A DNA stretch of 64,000 bases, taken from a virus. This document shows positions 6,318-31,473 of the stretch, piece after piece. Position 1 is the stretch's first letter, and each line of letters begins with the position of its first letter. The stretch lies in IMG/VR virus record IMGVR_UViG_3300045988_096313, positions 32,001 through 96,000 of that record; one strand, given 5' to 3'. The translations under genes and the position numbers were made by a program. Below the pieces are notes generated by a model, which saw only the letters and a program-made list of their open reading frames with translations, did no database searches and was not told the DNA's origin.

Positions 6318-7124
6318 ATGACGAAACCAAGAGATTATTTCACAGGTAAGCAAGAAGAGTTCAAACGCTCCGAAGTGCAGATAGCACCATATAATCCAAG
6401 GAGGATTTCACCGCAGCAGAAAGCTACATTGAAACGTTCCATAAGAAAATATGGCGTTGTTGGTGGTATAACCGTCAATAAGCAAACAATGACCATCGTA
6501 GGCGGCAACCAAAAAGTAACCATCGTGGATGAGATTATGGGCTATCCCGAAAAGGATTATACTCTTTTGGCTGAGGCTGTAAATATGGATTACAAGACCG
6601 AAGTTGAACTGAATTTCATGCTTAATTCCGAGAATGCTCATGGAGAATGGGATGACATGAAAGTCCGTGAATTACTGCCGGACATAAACTATATGGATGC
6701 TGGATTAACGGAAGAAGACCTATCCTTGTTTGGATATGATGCAATGGTAAAGACTGAAGGCGAAGATGAGTTAGGTAAAGAACTCAATTCCTTACTAGAC
6801 CCATTTGCCCAAGAAAGCGAAAACAGAAAAGTGCCAGCACCAAAGGAAGTGCAAGAAGAGCAGAGACGACAGATAGAACAGAACCAAGTCATAGCCAATC
6901 AGCAACAGGAGGCTCAATACCAAGCGAATAAGGAACGTATGCAACAGGTAAAGAAAGAAGTAAATACCAAGGCAGCAGAAAAAGCATTGGAAGCCGAGTC
7001 TTACGTCATGCTATCCTTTGATAACATCGAGAACAAGGAACGATTTATGAGCACCTTTGGCTTTATTGAAACCGATAAGGTGATAAAGGGAGAAATGCTT
7101 ATGAAGGTTGCTAAACGCATATAA
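6318..7124 (+). CDS. ParB/Srx-fold N-terminal domain-like protein with acidic/Gln-rich C-terminus
   Basis: IAPYNPRRISPQQKATLKRSIRKYGVVGGITVN...IVGGNQ resembles the ParB-like nuclease domain. The canonical GxxR motif is not conserved. Confidence 0.5.
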   Translation: MTKPRDYFTGKQEEFKRSEVQIAPYNPRRISPQQKATLKRSIRKYGVVGGITVNKQTMTIVGGNQKVTIVDEIMGYPEKDYTLLAEAVNMDYKTEVELNFMLNSENAHGEWDDMKVRELLPDINYMDAGLTEEDLSLFGYDAMVKTEGEDELGKELNSLLDPFAQESENRKVPAPKEVQEEQRRQIEQNQVIANQQQEAQYQANKERMQQVKKEVNTKAAEKALEAESYVMLSFDNIENKERFMSTFGFIETDKVIKGEMLMKVAKRI

Positions 7125-7512: not shown

Positions 7513-8091
7513 ATGGCAAAACCGAAATTTGATTACAATGGCGATGCTTTCTACGATGAGATAGAACAGCTTGCAAAGCAAGGTCAGAAGGATTCTGAAA
7601 TTGCTTACGCCCTTGGTTTGAAGTTTGGGGTTGACCTAAATCCACAGGTCTTCAACCGAATGAAAAACGGAAAATATGAGAATTGGAATGAAGACGAAAA
7701 TGCGGAAAGAGGCGAAAGAATAACTCAATCCCTCGTGCGTGGCAGAGAGTTTATTAATGCAATAGTGCGTGGTAGATACCTTAAATGTGCCCTTGGCGGT
7801 GTAAAAGTAAAAGGAAAGACGACTACCAAAAGACACATGGTTGTAGATGGAGTTATGACGGATGATATAGTAGTAGAAACTAGAGAAACAGAACAGGAAA
7901 CCCCACCTAACATACAAGCTCTTTCTACTTGGTTATTCCATTATGATATGACTTGGAGAGAGATACAGAGAGGTAAAAAGGATGAAGAGGAAAAGGGCAT
8001 TCCTTTTGACCCTAAGAAAGGTATATCCGTCAACAAGTGGATTGAAAGAGAGATTGAGCAGGAAGCAGAAGAGCAAGAGGAGGATGAATAA
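7513..8091 (+). CDS. terS: terminase small subunit (putative)
   Basis: Lies directly upstream of terL and overlaps it. N-terminal HTH-like segment QKDSEIAYALGL and an acidic C-terminus. Confidence 0.55.
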   Translation: MAKPKFDYNGDAFYDEIEQLAKQGQKDSEIAYALGLKFGVDLNPQVFNRMKNGKYENWNEDENAERGERITQSLVRGREFINAIVRGRYLKCALGGVKVKGKTTTKRHMVVDGVMTDDIVVETRETEQETPPNIQALSTWLFHYDMTWREIQRGKKDEEEKGIPFDPKKGISVNKWIEREIEQEAEEQEEDE

Positions 8092-9374
8092 TGGCAAAAA
8101 CACATTCCGTTTATTATCCGTTATATAACGACAAGACGCATTTCATTTACCTTATTACAGGAAGCCGTGCGTCAGGAAAAAGTTTCTCTGTCTCTCAGTT
8201 TATCGAAAGGCTTACTTTTGAATACAATGCCGAAAGGAAGATAGCGCATAAGATTCTTTATACACGTTACACGATGGTAAGTGCCGCTATTTCCGTAATT
8301 CCAGAGGTTAAAGAGAAGATAGAGATTGATGGCACACAGGATTACTTCAAGAATACTAAGACAGATATTGTCAACAAAATGACAGGAGCTGAAATCATGT
8401 TCCGTGGTATCAATACTTCTAGTGGTAATCAGACTGCTAAGTTGAAGTCTATTCATGGCGTGACTATATTTGTTGTTGATGAGGCTGAGGAGTGGACTAG
8501 TGAGGAAGACTTTGAGCGAATTATGCTCTCAATCCGTCAGAAAGGCTTGCACAACCGAGTAATAATCATTATGAACCCATGTGATTCTAATCATTGGGTA
8601 TATAAGCGTTTTATAGAAAAGACACACAAAGAGGTCTACTTTGATGGCGTTCCCGTCCAGATCAGTACCGACCCTAGAGTGCTTCATATACATACAACAT
8701 ACCTTGACAACATAAAGCATCTGTCACCGGAGTTCCTTAACGAGGTATTGGAAATGAAGGAGAAAGAACCTGAGAAATATGCGCATATAATGATTGGCAG
8801 ATGGTTAGATGTCTCTGAAGGTGCTATATTCAAGCATGTAGGTATCGTTGACAAGTTCCCTAGTAACGCTAGGAAAGTAGCCATCGGTGTAGACTGGGGA
8901 TATTCGAAAGACTATACTGCTATTGTGAAGTGCGGTATAGTTGACAATCGTCTTTATATAGAGGAACTTTGTTATAAAACGGAAATGTTGTCTAGTGACA
9001 TCATAAGATTCTTGCGCCCTTATGCGGACGAAGGCTTGTTTGTGTATGCAGATAGTGCTGACCCTAGACTTATAGATGAGGTAGCTCTTGGTGGAATAGT
9101 CATATATGGAGCACAAAAGGGTGCTGGTTCGATATTGGCTGGTATTGACAAGATGCAGACATTCGAAATCTTCACAACTAGGCAATCAGTCCATTTACAG
9201 AGCGAGTTCCGTAAATATGTGTGGTCAAAGGATAAGGATGGTAATTATATCAATGTTCCGGAAGACCATGACAATCATTTAATAGATGCTGCTAGGTATT
9301 ATATTCTTGCTGTATTACTCGGTAAGGTGATGAAGCCAAGGAAAGCATCTAAATCAGACTTAGGAGTGTACTAA
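8091..9374 (+). CDS. terL: terminase large subunit
   Basis: Walker A-like ITGSRASGKSFS and Walker B-like IFVVDEAEE. C-terminal nuclease-type acidic motifs (ADSADPRLI, EDHDNHLIDAARY). Confidence 0.88.
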   Translation: MAKTHSVYYPLYNDKTHFIYLITGSRASGKSFSVSQFIERLTFEYNAERKIAHKILYTRYTMVSAAISVIPEVKEKIEIDGTQDYFKNTKTDIVNKMTGAEIMFRGINTSSGNQTAKLKSIHGVTIFVVDEAEEWTSEEDFERIMLSIRQKGLHNRVIIIMNPCDSNHWVYKRFIEKTHKEVYFDGVPVQISTDPRVLHIHTTYLDNIKHLSPEFLNEVLEMKEKEPEKYAHIMIGRWLDVSEGAIFKHVGIVDKFPSNARKVAIGVDWGYSKDYTAIVKCGIVDNRLYIEELCYKTEMLSSDIIRFLRPYADEGLFVYADSADPRLIDEVALGGIVIYGAQKGAGSILAGIDKMQTFEIFTTRQSVHLQSEFRKYVWSKDKDGNYINVPEDHDNHLIDAARYYILAVLLGKVMKPRKASKSDLGVY

Positions 9375-9480
9375 ATGACAAATATAATTACTTTTGTAAG
9401 AAAAATACAAGTGTTTAAATATTAGATAGTTAGTGTAAGTACTCTATAAGGGTGAATAAACGTCTAGTGTAAATAAAAAA

Positions 9481-9527
9481 GATTGTTTACTAAATAAAGA
9501 TATATTCTTTAGTAAATAGTCTTTTTT
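9481..9527 (+). terminator. intrinsic terminator after terL
   Basis: A 14-bp stem (two G-T wobbles), GATTGTTTACTAAA/TTTAGTAAATAGTC, followed by TTTTTT. Confidence 0.75.
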
Positions 9528-9530
9528 ATT

Positions 9531-9547
9531 CACTTAAAAACTAAGTG
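9531..9547 (+). promoter_or_regulatory. CAC-N11-GTG dyad (CACTTAAAAACTAAGTG)
   Basis: Palindromic arms CACTTA/TAAGTG. The first C lies 61 nt upstream of the -7 box at 9592. Confidence 0.55.
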
Positions 9548-9591
9548 AAAGGCATACGTAGATTAAAGTGTGTAGAAACCCTGTTTATTAT

Positions 9592-9599
9592 TACCTTTG
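9592..9599 (+). promoter_or_regulatory. -7 promoter box TACCTTTG (portal promoter)
   Basis: Matches TAnnTTTG. Lies 19 nt upstream of ATG 9618. Confidence 0.6.
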
Positions 9600-9617
9600 C
9601 TTCAAAAAGTTATAAGG

Positions 9618-11030
9618 ATGTTTGTAGATTCAATTATTCAGATAAAGACATATTTTCGAAACCTCACGCTCAACGCATTGGGTGTGGAGAGAAGCATCTT
9701 CGAACGTTTGGAAGATAATGATGTTGATTCTGTCGTAAACATGATGGAACAACATGATTTCGATGTGGATAATGCTATTTCGGAATATAATCCGCAAACT
9801 CACAAGGTGATGAGCCGTGAGGATAAATGGGTAAAGGGAGAGAAGCCATATAGGACGGAGAAGTTGGCAAGGACAAGACAGAGATACATTAATGAGGTAG
9901 AATTGTTTTTTTTGTTAGGTAATCCGGTAATGTGGAAGAAGACTGAAGGTGATGATGAAGCCTTTGAGTTATACAAAAAATACTTGAAGGATATATACTT
10001 CAATACCAAACTACGCCAATGCAAGCGACTTGCAGGTTCGGAAACCGAAAGCGGTTTTGTTTTTAATTTCTCGCAAAAAAACGGAAAAATGCATGTTGAT
10101 GTGTATGTTGCAGCTCGTTCAAAGGGACATAAGATGAGAGAGTTGTTTGACCAGTATGGAAACATGCTTGCTTTTGCTATTGGTTATTCCTTAAAGCGAG
10201 AGTCAAAGACTATCGAATGTTGGGATATATTGACATCCGTTTTTAACTATCATTGTGAACGTGGTGGCTTTGGGTGGAAAGTGTATAAGTATCCTAATCC
10301 GACAGGAAAAATTAATGGCATTTATTTTCGTCAGCCAAAGGCATGGGAAGGAGCAGAACCGAGAATGGAACGTGAAGAAATGCTTGATTCCAAGATAGGA
10401 GATACTAACAACTACTTTGCTGACCCTATTGCCGCTGCAACTGCTGACGTGATACAATCAATCCCTAAGCGGAACAAGCCAGGTAAACTCATACAACTTA
10501 CAGGCAAGAACTCTAGGTTTGAATATATCAACCCACCTCAGAATTCCGAAATCCGCAAGGCAGAGAAAGAAGACTTGGCTCAGTCTATATTGTTTGATAC
10601 GTTTACACCGGATATGTCACCGGAACTGATGAAAGCTATGAGTACGCTTACAAGTGTAGGCATAAAACGAGCGTTGGTATTGGGTTACATCAAACGAGCG
10701 AACCGAATGGAAATCTATGAAGAACTTGTCGGTAGATTATCGCATGTGATTATAGCCGTTATGAAGGAACTATATCCTGAGATGAGAAGCAAGTTGGATA
10801 AGCTGGAAGTGGAGTTCGATTTCGCAGAGCCGTTCGAGGATGACAAAAAGGATAAGTGGAAAGTAATAGCGGAACTATACAATCAAGGTGTACTATCATT
10901 GGAGACTGCTGTTCAAATGTTGGCTCTTACTGATGCTCCTGCTGAAGAAATCGAAAAGATACGCAAAGATTCAGAAGATAAAGTAGCATTAGCTGCAAAA
11001 GTAAAGGGAAACGAAAACACAACTTCATAA
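9618..11030 (+). CDS. portal protein (SPP1 gp6-like)
   Basis: About 470 aa, immediately after the terminase genes. Start moved to the first ATG after the promoter, because the ORF-track TTG at 9597 lies inside the -7 box. Confidence 0.7.
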   Translation: MFVDSIIQIKTYFRNLTLNALGVERSIFERLEDNDVDSVVNMMEQHDFDVDNAISEYNPQTHKVMSREDKWVKGEKPYRTEKLARTRQRYINEVELFFLLGNPVMWKKTEGDDEAFELYKKYLKDIYFNTKLRQCKRLAGSETESGFVFNFSQKNGKMHVDVYVAARSKGHKMRELFDQYGNMLAFAIGYSLKRESKTIECWDILTSVFNYHCERGGFGWKVYKYPNPTGKINGIYFRQPKAWEGAEPRMEREEMLDSKIGDTNNYFADPIAAATADVIQSIPKRNKPGKLIQLTGKNSRFEYINPPQNSEIRKAEKEDLAQSILFDTFTPDMSPELMKAMSTLTSVGIKRALVLGYIKRANRMEIYEELVGRLSHVIIAVMKELYPEMRSKLDKLEVEFDFAEPFEDDKKDKWKVIAELYNQGVLSLETAVQMLALTDAPAEEIEKIRKDSEDKVALAAKVKGNENTTS

Positions 11031-11051
11031 TTTTAAATACTTATTGTTTTT

Positions 11052-11085
11052 GGGCGCATTTCCTGTTGGGATTTGCGCCCTTTTT
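11052..11085 (+). terminator. intrinsic terminator after portal
   Basis: GGGCGCA/TGCGCCC stem followed by TTTTT. Confidence 0.75.
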
Positions 11086-11086
11086 G

Positions 11087-11103
11087 CACTTAAATTTTAA
11101 GTG
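11087..11103 (+). promoter_or_regulatory. CAC-N11-GTG dyad (CACTTAAATTTTAAGTG)
   Basis: 7-bp arms CACTTAA/TTAAGTG. The first C lies 61 nt upstream of the -7 box at 11148. Confidence 0.55.
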
Positions 11104-11147
11104 AAAGCATTGTGGTAAAAATATAATATTATTCCTCATTTTGTTTT

Positions 11148-11155
11148 TAACTTTG
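11148..11155 (+). promoter_or_regulatory. -7 promoter box TAACTTTG
   Basis: Matches TAnnTTTG. It lies only 5 nt before ATG 11161, implying a near-leaderless transcript. Confidence 0.45.
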
Positions 11156-11160
11156 TTGGC

Positions 11161-11646
11161 ATGAACACGAATGAACTTATCATAAACGGAAAAGATGCTT
11201 GGACTACCTATCGGGTCAAGATGGGGTATGGCTTTTTGGATGCGTTGGAAGCTGACGCAGACAATAAAAGTTATATTACCAATGAAGTAAGGACAGAGAA
11301 TGGAACTAGGGTAGTTCCTATCCGTCCAAAAAAGGCTGAAAGAAGTATAACCTTGGAGTTCGTTATTGTCGGTAAAGACCATAATGATTACAACAATAGG
11401 GTAAAAGCCTTTGATACACTTATGGATAATGGTTTTGTTACGATACAGGTTCCGAAGTCGAAGGATGATGTCTATCGTTTGTTTTGTGCGAGGAAGTCGC
11501 CTACCTATTCAAGAGGAAAAGGAGGGGTTATAGGCAAGAAGAGTTTGAAGTTTGTAGAATATAATCCTACTAATAGGGGAGTGTTGACGGATTCAGATAT
11601 TGATATGTTCACGTTGAAAGAATTTGAGGATATAGAGCAATTATGA
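11161..11646 (+). CDS. distal tail protein (Dit)-like / phage tail family protein
   Basis: 161 aa, directly upstream of the giant fibre or tail-tip gene. The call rests mainly on position. Confidence 0.45.
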   Translation: MNTNELIINGKDAWTTYRVKMGYGFLDALEADADNKSYITNEVRTENGTRVVPIRPKKAERSITLEFVIVGKDHNDYNNRVKAFDTLMDNGFVTIQVPKSKDDVYRLFCARKSPTYSRGKGGVIGKKSLKFVEYNPTNRGVLTDSDIDMFTLKEFEDIEQL

Positions 11647-11694
11647 AAACTTACAAGGATATTGAGCGATTATGAAAACTTACAAGGATATTGA
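11641..11694 (+). repeat. 29-bp-period tandem duplication of the fibre start region
   Basis: TTATGAAAACTTACAAGGATATTGA occurs at 11641..11665 and again at 11670..11694. The first copy gives a 9-codon mini-ORF overlapping the Dit stop. Confidence 0.9.
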
Positions 11695-14600
11695 TATAAA
11701 GTATTACGATAATGACGGAAACATACATGTAAGATGTTCTGTTCCCGTAACACAGGATGCATTGGTTCACTATGAATTAATGCAGTCCCACTATTGTAAG
11801 CTTTCCTTTAAGCTTACTAAGCCTACATATTTCTTACTTGGTGATTTTATAGATACACCATATGGACGATTTGAACTAATAGACTTAATTAAGGCCAAGG
11901 ATAATGATACTATTGGATATTCCTATGAGATACAATTTGATGCATATTATCGTAAGTTAAAGAATAAGATCTTGAAGTATCGCCCTAATACAGGTTCACA
12001 AGAAGCGACATTCTCTCTTACTTCAAAAATAAGCACCCATGTAGAGGTGATTATGAAAAGTTTAGCTTATTATGCGAAGTTAGACAAGTCTTATCTTTAC
12101 GACCCTAAATTTGAAGGCGAAGGTACGGACTATACTTATGTTATTGATGCGAGCGTAGACGCAAATGCTGCAAAGCTTATAACCTACTCAAACACAAGTA
12201 TGTTGGATGCTATTGCAAATATTGCTCAGACGTTTGAATGTGAATGGTGGTTTGAAGGCAATATTCTACATTTTGGTACTTGCGAGAATACAAATGCGAT
12301 TGTTGATTTCAGACTAAACGACAACATCGTTTCTATGTCAAGTTCGCAAAGCCAGTCCACTTATGCAAACAGGGTATATGCTTTTGGAGCTGCAAGGAAC
12401 TTGCCTAGTGGATATAAGAATGATGCAGATGCGGACATAACAAAGGATGGTGTTGTAGAAAAACGTCTCATGCTTCCTACTTCAGCAGAATGCTCTGACA
12501 AAAACAAGCAATTGTTAGCAGAGAATGGCTTTGAGCTGAAAAACGGATATATACAAGTCGGTGGACTCCATGAAGACCAGTATGTAGAGGGAGTAACAAC
12601 AAATGATGATATTTATCCAAGAAACCTTATCAAAACGTCTAAGGTGACATCATACGAAAAAGATGTAGAGGATGAAAGTACGCCCGAAGAGGGTGATTAC
12701 ATCAAACGGACTTTCTATCGTGTAAATTCGCTTACTATTGTCAATGATGATGGCGAAAAAACAGGTGATATGGCTTTCCGAAAGGCGTATATTCTTAGTG
12801 GTAAGAATTTACATATAGTGTTCCAAAGCGGTTCACTTAATGGTATGGACTTCGAGTGTGAGTTTAATCCAGATGGAGTTTCGGAAATACTTAGAGATAA
12901 TGATGGCAATCCGATTTTAAAGTATGGAAAGGAACAGATAAATCCAAAATCACAGGTCTTTGAGATTGTTGCTAATGAGGATTATGGTCGTTTTTTGCCG
13001 GACACGGCATTACACCCAAAAGATGGAGATACTTTTGTTCTCTATAATTGGGATTCTACCAAATTGGGCGATACTTTGGTTTCTGCTGCTTCGAATGAGT
13101 TGTTGACGGACGCTATTAAAAATTTGAAGAAGTCTATGATAGACCCTACGACATATACATGTACCGCTGAGGCTAATTATTCATTCAGTCAAGGTCGTGG
13201 CAACTTTCATGGGGTAGGAGACAGGGTTAACCTTTACAATAAGGGTTATGATGACAGCTATAGGTCTTCAAGAATTATCGGCTATGAACTTAATTTGGAT
13301 ATTCCTTATGATGGAGCAAAATATTATGTCGGAGAAAAACCGTCATATTCACGGCTCAATGCAATGGAGTCTAAAATTGAGGAACTTGTTTATAACGGAC
13401 AGAGTTATCTTAATGGCAATGGAGGCGGTGGAAAATCAATTTACATTATTAAAAGTTACGACAAGACTGCACCTACTGATTACAATGTGTATTCCGCAAA
13501 GGCTGTTGACGAGCAAAGATTAAACAAACTTAAGGATGACACCGCCAAGGGAACTATCACTTGGGAGAAGGTGCAGAAGCTTCTAAGTGGTTTGCTTATC
13601 GGTAACTCCAACAATGAGAACGGAGGCTCGTGGACTCCAGATGCAGAAGGTCGTTCGCACCTCATCACAGATTACTTGGAGGTAAGAATGAAGGCTATCT
13701 TCGAGGAGCTGGTCATTAATAAAACATCCACCATCGGTGGTAAGGAGATAATCTCTCCTGCTGGTGGCGTGGTGGCTCATAAGGTAGAAGAAGTTACTGT
13801 GACATACAATAATGTGTCACAGAAGGCTTATCGTTGCTATTTCTTAGCAGAGCAAGACGGCGACAAGATAGACAACGACTTTGTTGTTGAAGACCAAGTG
13901 CGCTCGGAGTCATTCAACTTGAATGCAGGAAAGTACCACAAGACAGGCAACCACTTCTTTTGGCGATTGGCAATCGGTCGTGACGAGGAACCTGTAGAGT
14001 TGGAAGGAAAGAAATACCATTACATCGACCTCTCGGAAACGGATTGCGCAACAGGTAGCGATGTTCCTATGAAGGGCGATGTACTCAGCCAATGCGGTAA
14101 CAGAAGCGACCCTATGAGACAGAGCTGCTTGGTATTCTCTTCGGTAGATACCTATTCGCCATCCATTAGCCTCTATCACGGCATCAACAGCTATTCCTTT
14201 GCCAATAGGGAGTATGTGGAATATGGTGTGAATAAGCAGACTAACAAGGCATTCTTCCACGTCTACGGAGATATGTACTTCGGAGACCGACCTACTAGTG
14301 CCAATAACTACGAGGGTGATTCCTACGTCAAGTATGATAGCGACAAGAAGAAAGTAACCATCAAGGGAGACTTGGATATTAAGTCCACCTATGATGGCAA
14401 AACCTTGGATAAGTATATCGCAGACAAGAGTTTGGATAAGAATGCCGTTGAGACCATTATCAAGAAATCGGAGACGATTATCGACCTTCAAAACCAGATA
14501 GACGGTGCAATCGAGACATGGTTCTACGATGGCGTTCCTACATTGAAAAATGAGCCAGCAGTCGGATGGGACACGGACATGATGAAAAACCATCTTGGGG

Positions 14601-17600
14601 ATTTGTATTATGACAATAAGACGGGCAAGGCATACCGCTTTGCCAAGGATGGCTCTACCTATAAGTGGATTATCATCACAGACACGGAACTGACCAAGGC
14701 ACTCGAAGATTCAAGCCAAGCACTCAAAGATGCAAAATCAAAGAGACGTATCTTCGGCTCTCAGCCAGTTCCACCATACGACGTGAACGATATGTGGGTC
14801 AATGCCACCTATCCTAGCGATGGAAGTACCTACAAGAATGAAATCTTGAAGTGTTCCACCTCCAAGGCAGAAGGTGAAGAGTTTGATATTGCCGATTGGA
14901 AATTGGCTAGCAAGTATACCGATGACACGAAGGCAGAGGAAGCAAAGAAAGCTGCTGAGAAGGCGCAAGCAGAGATTAAGGACACGCAAACTAATTTGAT
15001 TGCCCTCGGAACGACCGTATCTAACAATAAGAAGGCTTTCGATGCTTTTACCTCTGATGGCTACTTGGATAGTTCTGAGATTGCGGCTATTGCGCAGGAT
15101 AGCAAGCGTTTGGAGGACGATTATAATGCAGCCGTTGAGTCGTATAATAATGTTGTTGGCTCTAAGTTCTTGTTAGATAAGGATGGTAAAGAAACGACCT
15201 ATAAAACGGATTTGGTTTCAGCTAAGGCTACACTCGATAGCGCAAAAAATGAACTCATTACCTATCTTTCTGACATCGTAAGCAGATACAACGCTTCTGA
15301 TTCCAATGAAAAGGCTACCATCAAGGCGGCTGCGGCTCAGAAGTATACCAACTTCACCAATGCTTATAAGGCTTTCTACGACAAGCTGGGTGTGGCGAAC
15401 AACTATATCACGTCTAATCTGTTTGATGGTCTCAATACTAAGCTCATCACCAATATGGCTGGTCTTGAATACATCAAGGCTGCACTTGTTGATGGAGACA
15501 CAGTAGTCAAGGGTGGTCTTATCCTCTCTACATTGATAGCCTTACGTAACGATAAGGGAAATGTTACCGCAGGTATCAATGGAGCGGACACGAAGGAGAA
15601 TGGCATCGCCCTTTGGCTTGGTGGTAAGGCTATCGACAAGCAAGCCTCCACGACAACAGAGGAAGAGAAGAAAATTGCTGCCAAGTCCCTCCTACGCTTT
15701 GACGGAACTGGCTACTTCGCCAACGGCAACCTTTGGTGGGACGCAGATGGTACTTTGCACGCAGACCCGACATCTTTCATTATCAACAAGAATAATGTTG
15801 GTGTACAGCTTGCTCTCTTCGCACCTGTATGGAAGAGCGGAACGACCGACACAACAAAGCTGGCAAACGTATTATCTATCGACCCACAGAAGCCTTTCAC
15901 TCATCTTGACGTATCGGGTAACGTGACAACCGAAGGCAGCTTGAAAATTGGTGGAATCTATCTATCGTATGATAGTACCAACAATGCCCTTCGACTATCC
16001 AAGGATGCGGCAGGAAAGGAGGCTGCTAACTTCTATGCTCTTGGTGGTATTACCGCATACGGAAAAGGTGCAGGTACTTCTGGCGGTGGTGGCGGCTTGA
16101 ACGGCAGTGTGAAGAGTTATTCAAATGCCTTGAAACTTACATCAGAATCGCTGAATGAGATTGCCTCTGCCTACTCCATCAAGGCTCTTGATTCTCGTAT
16201 CTCCAGCCTAGAAGGTGGTAGTGCTACTGCTATTTCTGTCAGCGGTAGCGGTAATGCGGTTACGTCTGTCACCAAGAATGGTACTACTATCAGCGTAGTT
16301 AAAGGTGCAACGTTCCTCACCAGTCATCAGTCACTTGATGGTTACGTTAATGCAATATCTGTAAGTGGAAGTGGGAATGCTATCACGTCTGTATCTAAAA
16401 GCGGAAAGGGTATTACATTTACTAAAGGTGCTACATTTTTAACTTCTCACCAAAGTCTTGCTAACTATTATACCAAAAGTAGTGTAGATTCACTTCTTAG
16501 TGGTAAGTCGGCAACTAGTCATACACATAGTGTTAAGATTAACGGTGTTACTAAAACTATTGCAGCTACTGGTGGAACTGCTGTAGATTTAGGTACTTAT
16601 CTTACTTCTCATCAATCTTTAGCAAATTATGTTACTACTACAGATAGTAGACTTAGTGATAGTCGTTATCCTAAATTTGCTAATCGTACTTGGTATTTAG
16701 TAGGATACGATGCTTATATTGGCGACCATAATTTAAGTGGTTATTTTTGTGTTAAAAGTGCTAATGATAGTACTCGAGTTGGTATTTCATTATGGAATCG
16801 TGCTGAAAATGATTATGCTAATATATGGTTCGATAATACAAATATAAACCTTGATAAACAACTTGTTATGAATAACAAGCGTATTTGGATTCAAGGTGTC
16901 GGTACTGCTGGAGGTAATAATAATAGACTTACTCTTGTAGCAGGTATGCCTAGCGGATTAGCATATAATACTTCATGCCGTGGAACGATTCTTTATTCTA
17001 ACGGTATAGCATTTGCTGACCCATATAATGGTAAATCAAATAATGATAGTGGATGGATTAGACATTTAGAAACTTCTGGTAATAGTGGAACTTTAGAAAT
17101 AGCAGTAGGTGATGATGCTTCAAATGAAGAAATTCATTTCAGATGGTATGATACTACTCCAACTTCAGAACATATAAGATATGATATAACTGTTCCTAGA
17201 GCTACAGGTACTTTAGCTTTAACTAGTCAAATACCTACTTCTCTTAAATCTCCAAATTCATTATCTTGGAGTGGTTATAATACAGGTTCTTATGATGGTT
17301 CTAGTCCTAAAAGTTTTGTTATACCTAGTAATACTAATCAGTTAACTAATGGAGCTGGTTTTATAACTTCTAGTGCTAGCATTAGTGGTAATGCTGCTAC
17401 AGCAACAAATGCTGATAAACTTGATGGTATACACGCTAATGGTCTTCTCACTGCTATATCTAATTCCGATAAAGGTATTAGTATAACAGTTGGCGGAACT
17501 ACTAAAAGTGTTAGTAATATTAGTGTTAACTATGCTAGTAGTGCTGGAAATGCTGATACTGTTGATGGTTATCATGAAAGTTCATTTCTTAGATATAGAG

Positions 17601-19477
17601 GTGAGTATGGAGATGCATCTGTAACTAAAGATGGAGTTGGAGTTTATGGTTGGGCTCATACTAATGAGGGACATAATAATTTTCATGAAAGCTATGGTGA
17701 TATAATTAATATACAAGGCTATTCTACTTGGAGAACTAGATTTGATATAGGAACTAGTGGAAGAATTAGAATAATGCATGGTATAAATACTACTACTGCA
17801 ACTCAGGTTGGTTATCTTGCTTATTTACATGATAATGTGGCTTCTGCAACTAAACTTCAAACTGCTAGAACTATTTGGGGGCAAAGCTTTGATGGTACTG
17901 GTAATGTTAATGGAACTATTTACATAAACAATAATAATTCCTCTAACGGTGCTATACGATTAAACAATGATATAAATTCTAATGCTCGTATATCTGCTAT
18001 AGATAACCAAGTAATATTTAATACTGGTGCTGCTATTCGTTTTGGTGAAACTGCTTGGGATTGGAATCAGTGGGCTGGACTTAAATATAATCATTCCTAT
18101 AAAATTATTTATCTTGGTATAGCTGATGGTTCTGCATTTAATGCTAATAACGCACAAAGTGAAGGTACGCTTAGACTTGCTGGTATTAAAACTGTAACTC
18201 CTGATAGTGGAGCTAGAATTGGAAATACTGGTGGAGATTTATATCTAGGTAATAACAATAATAGTGCTTGGGTGAAAGTTCAAGACATGTGTAGTCAACA
18301 AAATAGTAATAATTGGCGTATATATCAAGCTGGTGGTGCTGTATTTAATACTCTTACAATTAATGGTGGCAGTACTTTTAATGGTGCAGTTAAAGTTAAC
18401 AATATGCTTACTGCTAAAGCTATAATGTTTACTACTACTGATGCAAATGCGTTTGGTACTGATATAAATAATTGGGATGGTAGTATTGGGGCTAATGTTA
18501 CTAATATGTTTAATGGTATTCCTCAGGACAATATACAAGTAGAATATTCAATGGATAATGGTGCTAGTTGGAATACATATCCTGGTAATCCAGAAAGTAG
18601 ATTTAATCTTGTAAATGATAATACTAGGGTATTTAATTATTATTTAGGGTGTAATAATATGCTTGGTGATACTGAGGCTGATAAACTTGCTCAAATAAAG
18701 AAAAATCAACTTAGGGTTACTGTTAAAATTCCTGCTGAAATATATCAAGAACTTAGTTGGATAAGTGTTGACGTAAATAACGGAGTTGATATAAAATGTC
18801 AAGTATACTTTGGAAGTAGTACTGGTGGTTATAAAGAATATGTTTCTAAAATAATGTTAGGATGGGCACACAAATGTGATATTTGTGTTGGTCCTTTAAA
18901 TGTAAATGTTGGTAATGATACATATCGTTATGTAAGATTAGTATTTAGTCATCCTAGTAATAATACTGCTTTACGTAATGGTATTGTTGCTAAAATTAGA
19001 GCTTTAGCTTTAACTAAATATATTTATAATAATGGCAGATATACATTTAGTACTACTGGTCATATATATGATTATGATGCTTATATGAATACTTATTTCC
19101 CTAATAGCATTCTTGCTGCTGGTGGAGTTACAGCTTATAAATCTTCTGATGTTCGTCTTAAAACTAACATTACTAAACTTAATTGTTTAAATGTTATTAA
19201 AAGTATTGGAGGTACTTATGAATTTGATTATCTTCGTGACCATAAACATAGTATTGGTTTTATTGCTCAACATGTAAATAATCCATTACTTAAAGATATA
19301 GTTGCTAAGGATAAAGATGGTTATCTAAAGATTAACTATTGGAGTCCTAAACTTATTAGTCTTGCTTTTGGTGCTTTAACTGAAATAGATGATGAAGTTG
19401 ATAGACTTAAAGCTAGAGTTAGAGAATTAGAAACTGAAGTTGAATATTTAAAAAATAAAGATTATGCCTTACAATAG
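11672..19477 (+). CDS. giant tail fibre / tail-tip receptor-binding protein (2601 aa) with C-terminal intramolecular chaperone
   Basis: Uninterrupted 7.8-kb ORF with fibre-type repeats (NADKLDGIHA, NADTVDGYHES, SHTHS, LTSHQSL). C-terminal SSDVRLKTNI...IGFIAQHV...coiled coil matches Peptidase_S74. Confidence 0.88.
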   Translation: MKTYKDIDIKYYDNDGNIHVRCSVPVTQDALVHYELMQSHYCKLSFKLTKPTYFLLGDFIDTPYGRFELIDLIKAKDNDTIGYSYEIQFDAYYRKLKNKILKYRPNTGSQEATFSLTSKISTHVEVIMKSLAYYAKLDKSYLYDPKFEGEGTDYTYVIDASVDANAAKLITYSNTSMLDAIANIAQTFECEWWFEGNILHFGTCENTNAIVDFRLNDNIVSMSSSQSQSTYANRVYAFGAARNLPSGYKNDADADITKDGVVEKRLMLPTSAECSDKNKQLLAENGFELKNGYIQVGGLHEDQYVEGVTTNDDIYPRNLIKTSKVTSYEKDVEDESTPEEGDYIKRTFYRVNSLTIVNDDGEKTGDMAFRKAYILSGKNLHIVFQSGSLNGMDFECEFNPDGVSEILRDNDGNPILKYGKEQINPKSQVFEIVANEDYGRFLPDTALHPKDGDTFVLYNWDSTKLGDTLVSAASNELLTDAIKNLKKSMIDPTTYTCTAEANYSFSQGRGNFHGVGDRVNLYNKGYDDSYRSSRIIGYELNLDIPYDGAKYYVGEKPSYSRLNAMESKIEELVYNGQSYLNGNGGGGKSIYIIKSYDKTAPTDYNVYSAKAVDEQRLNKLKDDTAKGTITWEKVQKLLSGLLIGNSNNENGGSWTPDAEGRSHLITDYLEVRMKAIFEELVINKTSTIGGKEIISPAGGVVAHKVEEVTVTYNNVSQKAYRCYFLAEQDGDKIDNDFVVEDQVRSESFNLNAGKYHKTGNHFFWRLAIGRDEEPVELEGKKYHYIDLSETDCATGSDVPMKGDVLSQCGNRSDPMRQSCLVFSSVDTYSPSISLYHGINSYSFANREYVEYGVNKQTNKAFFHVYGDMYFGDRPTSANNYEGDSYVKYDSDKKKVTIKGDLDIKSTYDGKTLDKYIADKSLDKNAVETIIKKSETIIDLQNQIDGAIETWFYDGVPTLKNEPAVGWDTDMMKNHLGDLYYDNKTGKAYRFAKDGSTYKWIIITDTELTKALEDSSQALKDAKSKRRIFGSQPVPPYDVNDMWVNATYPSDGSTYKNEILKCSTSKAEGEEFDIADWKLASKYTDDTKAEEAKKAAEKAQAEIKDTQTNLIALGTTVSNNKKAFDAFTSDGYLDSSEIAAIAQDSKRLEDDYNAAVESYNNVVGSKFLLDKDGKETTYKTDLVSAKATLDSAKNELITYLSDIVSRYNASDSNEKATIKAAAAQKYTNFTNAYKAFYDKLGVANNYITSNLFDGLNTKLITNMAGLEYIKAALVDGDTVVKGGLILSTLIALRNDKGNVTAGINGADTKENGIALWLGGKAIDKQASTTTEEEKKIAAKSLLRFDGTGYFANGNLWWDADGTLHADPTSFIINKNNVGVQLALFAPVWKSGTTDTTKLANVLSIDPQKPFTHLDVSGNVTTEGSLKIGGIYLSYDSTNNALRLSKDAAGKEAANFYALGGITAYGKGAGTSGGGGGLNGSVKSYSNALKLTSESLNEIASAYSIKALDSRISSLEGGSATAISVSGSGNAVTSVTKNGTTISVVKGATFLTSHQSLDGYVNAISVSGSGNAITSVSKSGKGITFTKGATFLTSHQSLANYYTKSSVDSLLSGKSATSHTHSVKINGVTKTIAATGGTAVDLGTYLTSHQSLANYVTTTDSRLSDSRYPKFANRTWYLVGYDAYIGDHNLSGYFCVKSANDSTRVGISLWNRAENDYANIWFDNTNINLDKQLVMNNKRIWIQGVGTAGGNNNRLTLVAGMPSGLAYNTSCRGTILYSNGIAFADPYNGKSNNDSGWIRHLETSGNSGTLEIAVGDDASNEEIHFRWYDTTPTSEHIRYDITVPRATGTLALTSQIPTSLKSPNSLSWSGYNTGSYDGSSPKSFVIPSNTNQLTNGAGFITSSASISGNAATATNADKLDGIHANGLLTAISNSDKGISITVGGTTKSVSNISVNYASSAGNADTVDGYHESSFLRYRGEYGDASVTKDGVGVYGWAHTNEGHNNFHESYGDIINIQGYSTWRTRFDIGTSGRIRIMHGINTTTATQVGYLAYLHDNVASATKLQTARTIWGQSFDGTGNVNGTIYINNNNSSNGAIRLNNDINSNARISAIDNQVIFNTGAAIRFGETAWDWNQWAGLKYNHSYKIIYLGIADGSAFNANNAQSEGTLRLAGIKTVTPDSGARIGNTGGDLYLGNNNNSAWVKVQDMCSQQNSNNWRIYQAGGAVFNTLTINGGSTFNGAVKVNNMLTAKAIMFTTTDANAFGTDINNWDGSIGANVTNMFNGIPQDNIQVEYSMDNGASWNTYPGNPESRFNLVNDNTRVFNYYLGCNNMLGDTEADKLAQIKKNQLRVTVKIPAEIYQELSWISVDVNNGVDIKCQVYFGSSTGGYKEYVSKIMLGWAHKCDICVGPLNVNVGNDTYRYVRLVFSHPSNNTALRNGIVAKIRALALTKYIYNNGRYTFSTTGHIYDYDAYMNTYFPNSILAAGGVTAYKSSDVRLKTNITKLNCLNVIKSIGGTYEFDYLRDHKHSIGFIAQHVNNPLLKDIVAKDKDGYLKINYWSPKLISLAFGALTEIDDEVDRLKARVRELETEVEYLKNKDYALQ
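16229..16474 (+). repeat. two tandem 123-nt (41-aa) repeats inside the fibre
   Basis: AISVSGSGNAVTSVTKNGTTISVVKGATFLTSHQSLDGYVN is followed by AISVSGSGNAITSVSKSGKGITFTKGATFLTSHQSLANYYT. A partial third copy (TYLTSHQSLANYV) lies near 16600. Confidence 0.9.
19142..19474 (+). other. Peptidase_S74 / endosialidase-type intramolecular chaperone auto-cleavage domain
   Basis: SSDVRLKTNITKL..YEFDY..HSIGFIAQHV..LKINY, then the coiled coil VDRLKARVRELETEVEYLK. Confidence 0.8.
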
Positions 19478-20747
19478 TGAAACTGGAATTATTAGTGCTC
19501 CTGTTAGCATTGATGATGTTAAACAAGCTCTTGGAGAGAGTAGCAATGACCTTGCTACTCTTTGTAAGAGTGAGAATATAAATATATGGAGTAGGTATAA
19601 ACCTATTAGTTGTAAAGGTGACTTTAAAGAATATCCTATTAGAGAAGATTCTGATGAAAAAGCAACATCTTCATATAATAAGTATGCTTGTGTTGTTCGT
19701 TGTGGTATGAATATACCTATAGATACTTATAAGAACTTACGTTATAATTATGGTGGAGAAGGTTTTGCAATTAACGCTTGTGAATTTTTTTATGTGGATA
19801 ATGTATACGGTCTTTATGGTGGTATTCATGATAATACAACTACAAGGGTATCAGGAAAACATTTTCCAAAAGGTGGTGCTAATTCTCCTTATAGATTAAG
19901 TGATTTTAGAAACTATAATAGTAAAGCTGAAAGTAATATATTTCTGACTTCTCTTCCTATATTAACTAGTGTTGAAATTTATTATTCTTCAACTCCTAAA
20001 CTTAATTGTGTATTATATATGAATGCAAATGTAGGTATTAATACAAATCTTACTATGGATGATATAATACCTGATTTATCTTTAGCTTGGTCTCTTTGGG
20101 TTCAAATTCGTTATGAATCACCATATAATGTTAACGATACGATTTATAAAAATTATTATGTTGGTAATTGTAAAAAACCAACAGATTTTGTATATGTTAG
20201 TAAAGAAATAACTTTTGATATAACTGGTGATAAAAAAATTGATATTGTACCTTTTTTAGCTGATGTTCGTAACGGATATTTATACGATAATTCAAAAATA
20301 ATTTTTATAAGTCCTCCAGGTAGTATTTATTTTAGCTATTATCCTAGACAAATTAATATGGAACGTATTAAAAGTGGTTCTAGTGATTTTGTTTATTTCT
20401 CAGAATTGAGAGAATTAGTTGGTGGTACTTGTATTTGTAAAGCAAGAATACATAAACTTCCTGATGCTGCATTTACAGTTACTGATGGTATATTTAGAAG
20501 TGTTTGTGCATATGGTAATAATAAGATAACATACGGAAGAGGTTATGTATCTAATAGCTCTGGTCAAAATATATCTTCTGTAACTGTTCCTAACGGTAAT
20601 AGAACAGATTATATTGATGTATATATAAGATTTGATAATGTTTATGAAGGAGCTTATTATGGACAAAAATGTGAATTGTCTTTTGAAATTAATATAGATG
20701 GCGGATGGAAACAAGTTCCTCCAGGAGGTTATTATATTATGCATTAA
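19464..20747 (+). CDS. hypothetical protein (427 aa), probably tail-fibre associated
   Basis: Overlaps the fibre stop by 14 nt and shares the AT-rich, T-ending codon usage of the distal fibre. Confidence 0.5.
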   Translation: MPYNSETGIISAPVSIDDVKQALGESSNDLATLCKSENINIWSRYKPISCKGDFKEYPIREDSDEKATSSYNKYACVVRCGMNIPIDTYKNLRYNYGGEGFAINACEFFYVDNVYGLYGGIHDNTTTRVSGKHFPKGGANSPYRLSDFRNYNSKAESNIFLTSLPILTSVEIYYSSTPKLNCVLYMNANVGINTNLTMDDIIPDLSLAWSLWVQIRYESPYNVNDTIYKNYYVGNCKKPTDFVYVSKEITFDITGDKKIDIVPFLADVRNGYLYDNSKIIFISPPGSIYFSYYPRQINMERIKSGSSDFVYFSELRELVGGTCICKARIHKLPDAAFTVTDGIFRSVCAYGNNKITYGRGYVSNSSGQNISSVTVPNGNRTDYIDVYIRFDNVYEGAYYGQKCELSFEINIDGGWKQVPPGGYYIMH

Positions 20748-20834
20748 GAAGTAGATATTCTTAACATAATAAATATGCTAGAAATGATATTAACTTTACT
20801 TATCAAATAAGTATAATTATTTAATAATACAATT

Positions 20835-21149
20835 ATGGAAATTAAAGTAACTAAAATTGTAAGTATGACTTCTAATGTAGAAGCTACTGTAAATGAACTT
20901 AGTATTAATGCTAATGTTCGAGTTCGTAACAATGACACTATCGAAGGTGTAGATAGTGGTAATGTAATTGATAGTACTGGTGACCAACTAGCTACTTTTA
21001 GTTATTACGGAAGTAATAATCTTAATATTAATTATAACAATATTGAGAATGGTAATGTTGCTGCTGTTAGTACTGCTGTTAATGATTTCATTAAAGAACT
21101 AGAGAAAAATCCTGCTCTTGTTAGTATTGCAAATACTAGTGAAATCTAA
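20835..21149 (+). CDS. hypothetical protein (104 aa)
   Basis: Last ORF of the AT-rich cassette. Asn/Ser/Val-rich. Confidence 0.45.
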   Translation: MEIKVTKIVSMTSNVEATVNELSINANVRVRNNDTIEGVDSGNVIDSTGDQLATFSYYGSNNLNINYNNIENGNVAAVSTAVNDFIKELEKNPALVSIANTSEI

Positions 21150-21170
21150 GTGTAATGATTAGCTTGGTTT

Positions 21171-21204
21171 GTGGGTATGAAAGCAGAATGCAAGTAATAC
21201 CCAC
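21171..21204 (+). terminator. hairpin at the end of the AT-rich cassette (possible terminator)
   Basis: GTGGGTAT/ATACCCAC 8-bp stem followed by TTTCC. The T tract is weak. Confidence 0.4.
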
Positions 21205-21265
21205 TTTCCGCTAATTTGTTTAGACAAAAAGTGTTAAAAAGATGTTTTTTGTACTGATTATTTTG

Positions 21266-21273
21266 TACCTTTG
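21266..21273 (+). promoter_or_regulatory. -7 promoter box TACCTTTG
   Basis: Matches TAnnTTTG, upstream of ATG 21336. Confidence 0.55.
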
Positions 21274-21335
21274 TGTGCAAATATAAATTATTATTTTTTT
21301 TATTATTTCTACAGTTGTAGACAACCAAGTTAATT

Positions 21336-21800
21336 ATGAAGAAGATTAAGACAATCGAGGCGGTCAACGCCTACAAAACATTGAAGGGCTTTAAGACAAG
21401 CTCTTTGAGTGAGGAAACCATGTTGGCGGTATGGAAGAACATGAAGGCTCTTCGTTCTATCGCCGACACCTTCGACAAGGATAAGGATGAGGCTCAGGAT
21501 TCCTTGAAGGATGACAAGTTCGAGGAGATGCAAGGCAAGCTCAAAACCGCACAGAAAAACGAGCTCAAGATGAAGAACGATGGCTATACCTACACCAAGG
21601 AGGATGCTGAACTCTTGGAAGAGGTGAACACCTACTTTGCTGCCTTTAGCAAGAAGACCATGGAGTACTTCAACGAACTCGCCGACAAGGAGGTCGAGGT
21701 GGAAATCACCGAGGTCGAGGAAGCCGAGCTGCTTAAGGCTATCAAGGCTTGCGAGAAGAGCTTCGATGACATGGAGATGCTCGCTTGCATCTGCAAGTAA
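21336..21800 (+). CDS. acidic helical protein (154 aa), monocistronic
   Basis: Flanked by its own promoter and a strong terminator. GC-rich, C/G-ending codons unlike its neighbours. Asp/Glu/Lys-rich. Confidence 0.6.
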   Translation: MKKIKTIEAVNAYKTLKGFKTSSLSEETMLAVWKNMKALRSIADTFDKDKDEAQDSLKDDKFEEMQGKLKTAQKNELKMKNDGYTYTKEDAELLEEVNTYFAAFSKKTMEYFNELADKEVEVEITEVEEAELLKAIKACEKSFDDMEMLACICK

Positions 21801-29988: not shown

Positions 29989-29994
29989 TCTATA

Positions 29995-30024
29995 TAGGGT
30001 GCATCTTATGATACACCCTATTTT
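29995..30024. terminator. bidirectional terminator between convergent genes
   Basis: TAGGGTG/CACCCTA stem followed by TTTT. Confidence 0.65.
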
Positions 30025-30205
30025 ATATACCTTTTAAATTCCTAACAATCCAAGAACCTATTGTTATATTCTCTTCTTTAGCTTTCTGTTTTATAATTTC
30101 TGCTATATCTTTAGGTATTCTAATGTGTAAATATACATGATTTAGTGCTTTTCGTCCAGATCCTTCTCTTGCACCGCCTCGTTTACTTGTTTTATTACTA
30201 TTCAT
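30023..30205 (-). CDS. ribbon-helix-helix-like DNA-binding protein with basic GGAREGSGRK arm
   Basis: The strand-helix-helix pattern VYLHIRIPKDIAEIIKQKAKEENITIGSWIVRNL. Paralogous N-terminal motif to the 60361..60549 product. Confidence 0.5.
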   Translation of the reverse strand: MNSNKTSKRGGAREGSGRKALNHVYLHIRIPKDIAEIIKQKAKEENITIGSWIVRNLKGI

Positions 30206-30225
30206 ATCTAGTTTTTATTCTTGTT

Positions 30226-30720
30226 TTAATAAATCCTTGACATTCCGGTTGGGCAGAATGATGTGCCATACGCCTTATCAATCTCTCCCAAATAGATTTC
30301 AATCTCGTTGTTTGCTTGAAGAAGCTCGCTGACGATGCGGTTTTTGTTCTCCCAATACCAAGTATCATAATCTTTACTATCGTGGTCTTCGGGAATATCG
30401 TCCGAATATTCCATAAGTCCGTCAATATCATCAATCATAGCGACCTCTCCACAATCCGCACTAAACGACACACCATCTAATCCGGACAATCTGATTTCTT
30501 CATTCAGTTCATCAATCTTTGCTAGAATGCCGTTTTCGGAAGATTCTGCGCAATTGTCAATATTGGTATGAAGTTCATGTCGCAAGCCGCATAATCTGGT
30601 AATCATGTCTGCTTGTTCTTTTGTCATACCATTACTGATGGCGATCTCTTCATTGTGAGCATTTCTTTCGGCTGCACTATTTTTGCGATACTCGTATTGT
30701 TCTTTATTAAGATAAGCCAT
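30226..30720 (-). CDS. acidic hypothetical protein (164 aa)
   Basis: Intact ORF, Asp/Glu-rich. Confidence 0.5.
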   Translation of the reverse strand: MAYLNKEQYEYRKNSAAERNAHNEEIAISNGMTKEQADMITRLCGLRHELHTNIDNCAESSENGILAKIDELNEEIRLSGLDGVSFSADCGEVAMIDDIDGLMEYSDDIPEDHDSKDYDTWYWENKNRIVSELLQANNEIEIYLGEIDKAYGTSFCPTGMSRIY

Positions 30721-30749
30721 AAAGTTGCTTTAACCGTGATAGCGAGGGC

Positions 30750-31064
30750 TTAAAATCTTTTTGTTTTCTTTCCGTTTATATATTCTTCTTGCCACATCTC
30801 TTTATAGTCAGACATATCGTCTGAATAGTAACAGATTATGGTTACTTGCGCAAGACCCGCATCTAATGATGTTGATTCTTTGTAACGCATGTTTTCAGAG
30901 CCAATATCTAACGAATACTTCTTAGCCATTTTTACAGCTTCTCTATAATTGTCTGCTCCATCGAACTCTACACTTTCGTAATCGTCTTCCACGCTACCTT
31001 TTACGTGCTGTTTAAGAGCAATTTCGTATTTTGGATATACTGTCTTTCCATAGATATTTTTCAT
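30750..31064 (-). CDS. hypothetical protein (104 aa)
   Basis: Intact ORF in the minus-strand operon. Confidence 0.5.
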   Translation of the reverse strand: MKNIYGKTVYPKYEIALKQHVKGSVEDDYESVEFDGADNYREAVKMAKKYSLDIGSENMRYKESTSLDAGLAQVTIICYYSDDMSDYKEMWQEEYINGKKTKRF

Positions 31065-31067
31065 ATC

Positions 31068-31340
31068 TTATGCCTTATCCGTGTTGGCGAGGGCTGATAG
31101 AAATTGTAATTTTAGTTTCTTAAACATAACCTTTTGGTCAAGGCTATCGGAAAAACAAAGAGAAATAGACTCTTTTAATTGTTCGTCCGTTCGGCAATCT
31201 ATATAATCTGCATAAATAGCTTCAATATAGCTATTATACCTATTAAAATCATATTTTATAGAGCCGTCAGATAGGTGAACAATATTTTTTGTTCTTCTAT
31301 CTATATTCTTGTTCTTTAGAACGTATAAAGTATTACTCAT
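31068..31340 (-). CDS. hypothetical protein (90 aa)
   Basis: Intact ORF in the minus-strand operon. Confidence 0.5.
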   Translation of the reverse strand: MSNTLYVLKNKNIDRRTKNIVHLSDGSIKYDFNRYNSYIEAIYADYIDCRTDEQLKESISLCFSDSLDQKVMFKKLKLQFLSALANTDKA

Positions 31341-31473
31341 CCTTTAATTCTTTTAGTGCATAATCCAAAAGCTTATCAATATCCATTGATAGCGAATAAC
31401 AGTTCTCGTCATCTATTCTTTCTAGCTTTTTTCGAGCACGATTTATTAATTCTATTAAATTTTCTGTATTCAT
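31333..31473 (-). CDS. hypothetical small protein (46 aa)
   Basis: Hand-translated as MNTENLIELINRARKKLERIDDENCYSLSMDIDKLLDYALKELKDE. Its stop overlaps the next start (ATGAGTAA). First ORF after the promoter at 31540. Confidence 0.35.
   Translation of the reverse strand: MNTENLIELINRARKKLERIDDENCYSLSMDIDKLLDYALKELKDE

Follow-up and report, generated by a model that had tools for sequence, protein, structure and literature searches.

Receptor-binding ends of tail fibres are known to move between phages: the distal fibre locus of T-even phages recombines between conserved motifs, swapping gp37 and gp38 adhesins, and fibre mosaicism has been described in lambda, P2, Mu and T4. Here we analyze an AT-rich stretch, from about 16.3 to 21.2 kb, within 64,000 nt of viral DNA (IMG/VR record IMGVR_UViG_3300045988_096313, positions 32,001 to 96,000; this whole piece is called the window), which covers the distal part of a giant tail-fibre gene and two downstream genes of 427 and 104 aa (p427 and p104) and which we call the cassette. 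We consider it likely that the cassette is made of exchangeable host-recognition modules whose native setting is a crAss-like podophage lineage and which reside in an unrelated family of Segatella copri phages. Much as in T-even, lambda, P2 and Mu mosaicism, distal receptor-binding modules appear to have been exchanged between dissimilar phages with the N-terminal anchor retained, and, as in T-even phages, short conserved motifs or repeats mark the breakpoints and the fibre tip is accompanied by an accessory or adhesin gene lying downstream. Unlike in T-even phages, a crAss-like podophage lineage is paired here with a large siphophage-like family that occurs as S. copri prophages, the motifs are LTSHQSL and SDVRLK, and a contrast in third-codon-position G+C (GC3; 0.1 against 0.4-0.5) points to where the modules came from. 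Because fibre-module exchange is textbook, the principle is not new, and the novelty lies in an unusually legible instance between Crassvirales and S. copri phages.

As in S74-bearing fibres and spikes such as endosialidase K1F and the T5 L-shaped fibre pb1, an S74 domain forms the extreme C-terminus of the window's fibre from an SD-x-RLK motif onward and, by analogy, would presumably be removed by cleavage once the trimer has folded; unlike in K1F and pb1, the chaperone of the window's family is itself exchangeable and comes in two compositional types, A and B. The T5-like phages DT57C and DT571/2 carry branched lateral fibres of LtfA and LtfB, the second product being proposed, in PMC4728585, to attach and to provide a second specificity. 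The window likewise has a long fibre gene followed by a second gene, p427, whose conserved N-terminus and variable C-terminus would fit such a role, the likeness being one of gene layout. The Crassvirales tail-spike is described, in PMC10136315, as strikingly diverse and rapidly evolving, with horizontal transfer of BACON repeats, and similarly to that hypervariable region the donor-type contigs described below carry the cassette immediately upstream of crAss tail ring genes. We found no description of fibre modules shared between crAss-like and other phages in the titles and abstracts that literature searches listed, nor in a preprint and PMC10136315 as far as these were searched, which is not proof of absence.

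A synonymous-site break inside one fibre gene

The fibre gene and the cassette resolve into the following features, all on the plus strand.

11672-19477, giant tail-fibre open reading frame (ORF), 2601 aa, with PHROG tail-family matches over aa 1-1238 and Pfam Peptidase_S74 over aa 2492-2536
11672-13531, module N, the lineage-specific proximal (anchor) part, GC3 0.33, window-like
13532-16330, module M, shaft, GC3 0.51 (above the window background), the left flank outside the cassette
16322-16621, junction zone, with three LTSHQSL motifs (nt 16322, 16445 and 16607) in repeats of about 41-54 aa
16331-17829, module C1, AT-rich distal shaft, GC3 about 0.1, a patchwork of sub-modules
17830-19144, module C2, fibre tip, with a jelly-roll domain at nt ~18509-19021 (aa ~2280-2450) from AlphaFold2 and Foldseek
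19145-19477, S74 intramolecular chaperone domain, AT-rich type B, beginning at SDVRLK (Pfam PF13884)
19423-19604, conserved linker over the end of the fibre and the start of p427, from alignments with loci L093, L133, L148, L157, L185 and L089
19464-20747, p427, accessory gene, GC3 0.10, overlapping the fibre stop by 14 nt
20835-21152, p104, optional 104-aa gene at the right end of the crAss-shared sequence, where the alignments end
21153-21331, AT-rich spacer of 179 nt containing a hairpin at 21171-21204, delimited by homology search

A three-segment maximum-likelihood change-point model fitted to the GC3 of the ORF at 11672-19477 gave values of 0.33, 0.51 and 0.106 along the gene, with breaks at 13532 and 16331; the second break has a 2-lnL (log-likelihood) interval of 16319-16349, and lnL rises from -1598 to -1393 (a difference of 205). 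The preliminary description had placed the shift inside one continuous ORF, and the breakpoint indeed falls within the uninterrupted 2601-aa frame; the six G+C values that it had counted by hand on 60-nt lines (45, 50, 32, 37, 28 and 52%) were all exact on recount. Along the fibre ORF, G+C at first and second codon positions stays steady at about 0.43 and 0.45 and GC3 alone goes from about 0.5 to about 0.1; the drop is confined to synonymous sites. The AT-richness was rightly said to last through the S74 domain and both downstream genes, with GC3 of about 0.10 throughout (0.10 in the 427-aa ORF at 19464-20747 and 0.11 in the 104-aa ORF at 20835-21149), and the codons are T- and A-ending as claimed, cassette third positions being 61-67% T and 21-29% A. 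Overall, G+C is 30.9% across 16352-21204 versus 38.4% for the remainder of the window, and the remaining 95 window ORFs have a GC3 of 0.40 +/- 0.08 with a minimum of 0.20, which places the cassette more than 3 standard deviations lower.

On the left, the GC3 break at 16331 coincides with the first LTSHQSL motif. Tandem Repeats Finder detected no nucleotide-level tandem repeat at this junction, the repeats being visible at the protein level only. Between the LTSHQSL repeats lies a SATSHTHSV peptide with an HxH pattern (window 16520-16545, fibre aa ~1617-1625), and metal-binding HxH motifs occur in other phage fibre shafts. Module M has a GC3 of about 0.52 family-wide (~146 relatives), nearer to the 0.42-0.58 of the genes around S. 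copri prophages, which suggests that it forms a second, host-like compositional layer within the fibre ORF.

On the right, composition recovers at about 21356 (interval 21306-21362), corresponding to the start of the next gene (21336-21800), and homology ends at 21152, upstream of the hairpin that had been proposed as the end of the block. The hairpin itself was confirmed (8-bp stem, region z-score -4.2), but it was rejected as cassette end or terminator, as homology stops 19 nt earlier and the hairpin did not pass a terminator scan. No counterpart of the spacer at 21153-21331 was found among the 169 loci compared. Near it, TACCTTTG (~21268) and TATCTTTG (~21963) are by-eye fits to the Bacteroidota -7 promoter motif TAnnTTTG and would be consistent with a Bacteroidota host. 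The gene directly after the cassette, p154 (154 aa, 21336-21800), has a GC3 of 0.74, the window maximum, with about 0.65 family-wide and two allelic types at about 92% and 60% aa identity to the window; its crAss-like counterpart is 35% identical and has a GC3 of about 0.1. Since p154 is so GC-rich beside the cassette, the locus alternates very AT-rich and very GC-rich modules.

Phage tRNAs offsetting the AT-rich codons were considered and rejected, as the window holds zero tRNA genes. Diversity-generating retroelements hypermutate adenines in a short variable repeat; hypermutation of this type was dismissed, without a dedicated search, as it could not give a 4.8-kb synonymous-site shift common to another phage lineage.

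The same modules in two unrelated phage groups

Loci were fetched from contigs with matching genes (L-numbers hereafter), and crAss-like contigs were compared through their 10-kb flanks. This recovered a lower-GC phage lineage with the same genes, as the preliminary description had supposed, namely crAss-like contigs of about 30% G+C in which the composition of these genes is native. Approximately 15 crAss-like contigs were sampled with p427 and AT-rich distal modules, and the p427-carrying subset is uniformly 27-33% G+C on contigs of 92-98 kb, with ORF GC3 of 0.06-0.22 except for the GC-rich ORFs of L003. Flank genes of the low-GC contig L048 match the crAss-specific Pfam families CrAss_Ring_2 (2.1e-49) and CrAss_Ring_1 (8.4e-9) above cut-off, likewise those of L277 and L278, and over 2.4 kb low-GC contigs share 74.5% nucleotide identity with the 92.7-kb genome of cr8_1 (Intestiviridae, Obtuvirinae, Fohxhuevirus). 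Judged by these gene and DNA matches, the donor-type contigs are Crassvirales close to the Intestiviridae/Obtuvirinae phage cr8_1, whose crAss group is reported, in PMC10136315, to be common in a rural Malawian infant cohort.

The native crAss-like order runs from a fibre with S74 type B through p427 or another allele, p104 and a 165-aa gene to the ring genes, and the fibre is AT-rich over its whole length, its own anchor included. Loci L025 and L048 each match window 18959-21152 in a single alignment at 89% nt identity (L063 from 19054), L082, L060 and L277 match 17830-21152 at 81-86%, L003 matches 19423-20791 at 95%, and shorter crAss-like patches match 16355-16658 and 17408-17602. Outside the cassette the relationship ends: the crAss-like 10-kb flanks gave no further DNA match to the whole window, and their proteins are either 29-44% identical to the window's or unmatched. 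Codon usage points the same way, with relative synonymous codon usage (RSCU) in the cassette correlating at r=0.98 with crAss-like non-cassette genes versus r=0.69 with the window's own genes, so that the codon-usage check proposed earlier found the cassette foreign to its surroundings just as the GC3 check found a breakpoint; the share of T at third positions is 0.61-0.67 for the cassette and 0.57-0.62 for crAss-like genes. Taken as a signature, shared sequence together with RSCU speaks for lateral transfer of modules that are at home in a crAss-like background.

The phage of the window belongs to a large family represented by human-gut contigs, with lengths of about 60-130 kb and a G+C of 38-40%. 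Its terminase large subunit is nearest to that of Bacteroides phage BS-TP2 (67.6% aa), followed by Riemerella siphoviruses (47%), and among GenBank phages in INPHARED the close matches were only the unannotated faecal contigs MT835636 and MT836190; cassette DNA matches to Acinetobacter and Synechococcus fibres were dismissed as trivial (70-80 nt). On its gene content and DNA the phage is not crAss-like, a non-crAss backbone being supported by a Dit-like gene, by a TMP_3 tape-measure gene near the fibre of a relative and by crAss-like flanks whose DNA is unmatched in the window. Family-type fibres with p427 lie inside S. copri chromosomes (HDD04, CP152484.1, 864942-886237; N016-9, on a 1.64-Mb contig), and a contig syntenic with the window was found in an S. 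copri assembly; therefore the host is very probably S. copri. At least some family members are temperate.

Within the fibre, module N is 75-95% identical in amino acids across the window's family and absent from crAss-like fibres, and module M shares only 39-47% of its amino acids with the N-terminal stretch of the crAss-like fibre. For module C1 the top matches lie within the window's own family at 96-98% nt, with crAss-like contigs at 74-76% aa. The tip was modeled with AlphaFold2 over the last 501 residues, the model being confident only at aa ~2280-2450 (model residues 180-350; confidence score pLDDT 79-95), and Foldseek against the Protein Data Bank (PDB) returned 27 matches for that part at E<=1e-3, the best being carbohydrate-binding module family 32 (CBM32) or F5/8 type C domains. 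These CBM32 matches (E 9e-5 to 1e-3, probability 1.00, target TM-score TMt 0.5-0.6) have no counterpart in a Pfam sequence match, and a PDB sequence search with the C-terminal 1048 aa of the fibre found nothing. By structural resemblance the tip may thus be likened to a glycan-binding module, which supports a receptor-binding tip.

The PF13884 match of the S74 domain scores 31.3 bits against a cut-off of 22 (aa 2492-2536 of 2601), SDVRLK (aa 2492, nt 19145) aligns to position 1 of the S74 profile, and in alignment A2 the motif residues S392, D393, R395, L396 and K397 show little or no variation. Type B, with a GC3 of 0.06-0.1, is 88-94% identical in amino acids to crAss-like contigs and about 60% identical to type A, the GC-rich version of most family members (GC3 about 0.62). 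In most relatives type A is followed by a 101-aa ORF of which the window has no homologue, and type B was observed in family contigs besides the window only in L185 (95% nt) and L204.

p427, a putative second adhesin, has a conserved N-terminal part of about 155 aa and a C-terminal beta-sandwich that varies. It is near-universal in the window's family (at least 120 loci, GC3 0.089-0.137), and alternative alleles of its slot, 336-477 aa long with GC3 of 0.08-0.57, have only the N-terminal ~155 aa in common; a constant end for attachment, with a distal end that varies, would match the usual design of receptor-binding proteins. The linker at 19423-19604 is kept at 91-95% nt even in relatives with a different downstream allele, and the alternative cassettes that the preliminary description had suggested seeking were found in the same slots. 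The AlphaFold2 model of p427 is poor (28-sequence alignment, mean pLDDT 38.8), with only residues 310-427 forming a moderately confident beta-sandwich, and Foldseek gave no match at E<=1e-3, CBM21-like matches at about 4e-3 being treated as uninformative. No relative of p427 was found by PDB sequence search, and neither p427 nor p104 nor p154 has a match in Pfam or PHROGs. One fetched locus, L282 (CAAGCO010000034.1), is a 1.2-kb contig carrying only p427 (80% aa) in a metagenome-assembled genome labelled 'Bacilli bacterium', which is most likely a binning error and not evidence for a Firmicutes host.

p104 moves as one piece, with ends lying precisely on its start codon and 3 nt beyond its stop, and it is present, absent or truncated among relatives, with approximately 10-15 family contigs carrying it. 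Homology between p104 and the 101-aa ORF found behind the fibre of most relatives was rejected (BLASTP E=26).

Probable repeated exchange, its direction and the alternatives

Several observations weigh against the simple picture of crAss-like modules moved into this phage. The nearest relative changes about ten times over 16.3-21.2 kb, every 0.3-1.5 kb (L102, L132, L085, L057, L037, then crAss-like L063, L003 and L063, each at 89-98% nt), and thus the cassette is not one block; most of 16331-18950 is best matched, at 90-98% nt, in the window's own family and not in the sampled crAss-like contigs. Traffic also runs in reverse, as the crAss-like locus L003 has an S74 of the GC-rich type A together with the 101-aa ORF, and a set of hybrid IMG/VR contigs switches between 38-45% G+C and a crAss-like 30% backbone exactly at the cassette. 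The direction of transfer is read from composition, and a third low-GC donor feeding both lineages is possible. That the modules would set adsorption specificity is suggested indirectly by the CBM32-like fold of the tip; the model of p427 is poor, and for p104 no homologue with a known role was detected.

The preliminary description had taken the cassette for a block probably acquired from a lower-GC phage lineage. What stands of this is that 17830/18959-21152 is collinear with the crAss-like arrangement, and it is the only part collinear with one donor-type genome; the switching of best relatives does not fit a block, and a single acquisition by this genome is contradicted by a left junction and AT-rich distal fibre common to about 100 relatives. 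The GC3 break lies near an SH[QK]SL motif in the fibres of 103 of 109 distinct relatives, at a median distance of 17 codons, which makes the left junction a family trait and not something that happened in this genome only. Alignment ends recur at 16086, 16314-16330, 16618/34, 17245, 17408, 17576, 17830, ~18350 and 18959 in the left part and at 19149, 19423, 19604, 20791, 20835, 21152 and 21332 in the right part, the end at 19149 coinciding with SDVRLK (nt 19145). On average, p427 copies share 93.3% of nucleotides inside the family, 91.6% inside the crAss-like group and 92.2% across the two lineages, every crAss-like copy is nearest to a family copy, and for L003, L025, L048 and L063, which carry no signs of chimerism, identity to that nearest family copy is 92.7-95.6%. 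Because p427 copies are not sorted by lineage, their interleaving argues for repeated, recent exchange.

We propose that a crAss-like phage and a phage of the S. copri family would meet in the same cell, either because both infect it or because a crAss-like phage enters a lysogen, and that homologous recombination at short conserved linkers would then swap modules with the lineage-specific N-terminal anchor kept. Such linkers could be provided by the LTSHQSL repeats, by SDVRLK as the cleavage motif of the chaperone, by the opening ~140 nt of p427 and by the exact ends of genes. Exchange would be repeated and in small pieces, with the last 2.2-3.3 kb reproducing the crAss-like arrangement, and the window's cassette would therefore be a mosaic; as recombination would take place in a shared cell, both lineages would use S. 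copri.

We infer that the net movement of AT-rich modules was from the crAss-like lineage to the S. copri phage family, because their composition is that of the crAss backbone and a divergence of 5-19% nt is too small for a shift of GC3 from 0.4 to 0.1, which needs far more synonymous change. The opposite course, with the modules arising in the S. copri family or in an unsampled low-GC lineage and crAss-like phages as recipients, would agree with the far denser sampling of p427 and AT-rich modules in the family (at least 120 loci against about 15) and with the GC-rich modules seen entering a crAss-like genome in L003. We nevertheless regard it as unlikely, as the modules fit crAss-like and not family codon usage and the crAss-like fibre is AT-rich throughout, own anchor and all.

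An assembly artefact, in which a chimeric contig crosses from a family phage into a crAss-like phage and back, has a precedent in the hybrid contigs at this very locus and would concern the sub-block 18959-21152; the spacer without a counterpart in the fetched loci and the rarity of S74 type B in the family could be read in the same way. This is improbable, however, because the left junction is in frame within one ORF and common to more than 100 contigs and complete S. copri chromosomes, because independent family contigs carry S74 type B (L185 and L204) and p104 adjoins the family's p154 and p183 in L171-174 and L181-185, and because leaving the crAss-like sequence would need shared sequence, yet crAss-like similarity stops at 21152 with nothing common there. 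Both flanks, moreover, come from the same family. The hybrid contigs themselves (L060/L082/L189/L206 on IMGVR_UViG_3300045988_064312, 167 kb; L190/L201/L202 on 3300045988_068777, 126 kb; L085/L178/L200/L342 on 3300029413_000001, 222 kb), some of which hold two cassette copies, are probably assembly chimeras or concatenations. If metagenome assemblers join both phage types at the shared cassette, this is a hazard for viral-genome catalogues.

An in-situ origin of the AT-richness without transfer, through local mutational bias or selection (slow translation for trimeric fibre folding, restriction-site avoidance or late-expression timing), would account for a shift at synonymous positions alone that is stable family-wide, p427 included, and persists in S. 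copri prophages whose neighbouring genes have GC3 of 0.36-0.68, but is very improbable given that crAss-like genomes with this composition across their entire backbone carry these sequences at 81-95% nt identity and that the same slots hold p427 alleles with GC3 of 0.23, 0.40 and 0.57 and an S74 version at 0.62, so that position does not impose AT-richness.

With transfer from a crAss-like lineage as the preferred explanation, we see about even chances for the broader idea that crAss-like (Obtuvirinae-like, virulent-type) and temperate S. copri phages draw on a common receptor-binding pool through repeated recent transfer. If so, both phage types would infect the same S. copri cells together and be rivals for their surface glycans, an uncultured crAss lineage could be given a host through shared fibre modules, and prophage fibres would be a reservoir of crAss host-range determinants. 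The link to S. copri-integrated phages provides a concrete host prediction for this uncultured crAss-like lineage. The contrast in codon usage labels module origin, making donor, recipient and breakpoints readable across hundreds of genomes, and the splice points (LTSHQSL repeats, SDVRLK and the 5' linker of p427) could guide host-range engineering in phages of gut Bacteroidota.

Other features of the window

Upstream of the fibre, the genes are as follows.

8091-9374, terminase (PHROG/Pfam)
9597-11030, SPP1-type portal (PHROG/Pfam)
11161-11646, Dit-like gene directly upstream of the fibre

The gene order over 8091-19477 is unusual, in that terminase, portal, Dit-like gene and fibre follow one another and neither capsid nor tape-measure genes intervene; in the relative L166, which has a different fibre anchor, a tape-measure gene (TMP_3) and a 146-aa gene precede the fibre. 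Nearer the start of the window, 6318-7124 encodes a ParB-like or methyltransferase-like protein (PHROG 1.4e-54 / 3.5e-19) and 2323-3321 a protein with a weak excisionase-like N-terminus (1.4e-6), which by these profile matches would be compatible with a temperate or episomal lifestyle. Relative to MT836190, the window has a 1.46-kb insertion at 36331-37791 with a local G+C of about 46% and a 378-aa ORF (36638-37774) matching a PHROG transposase (1.5e-87), probably an insertion sequence element private to this genome. At 29991-31723, 1.7 kb with three small minus-strand ORFs stands where MT836190 has about 130 nt.

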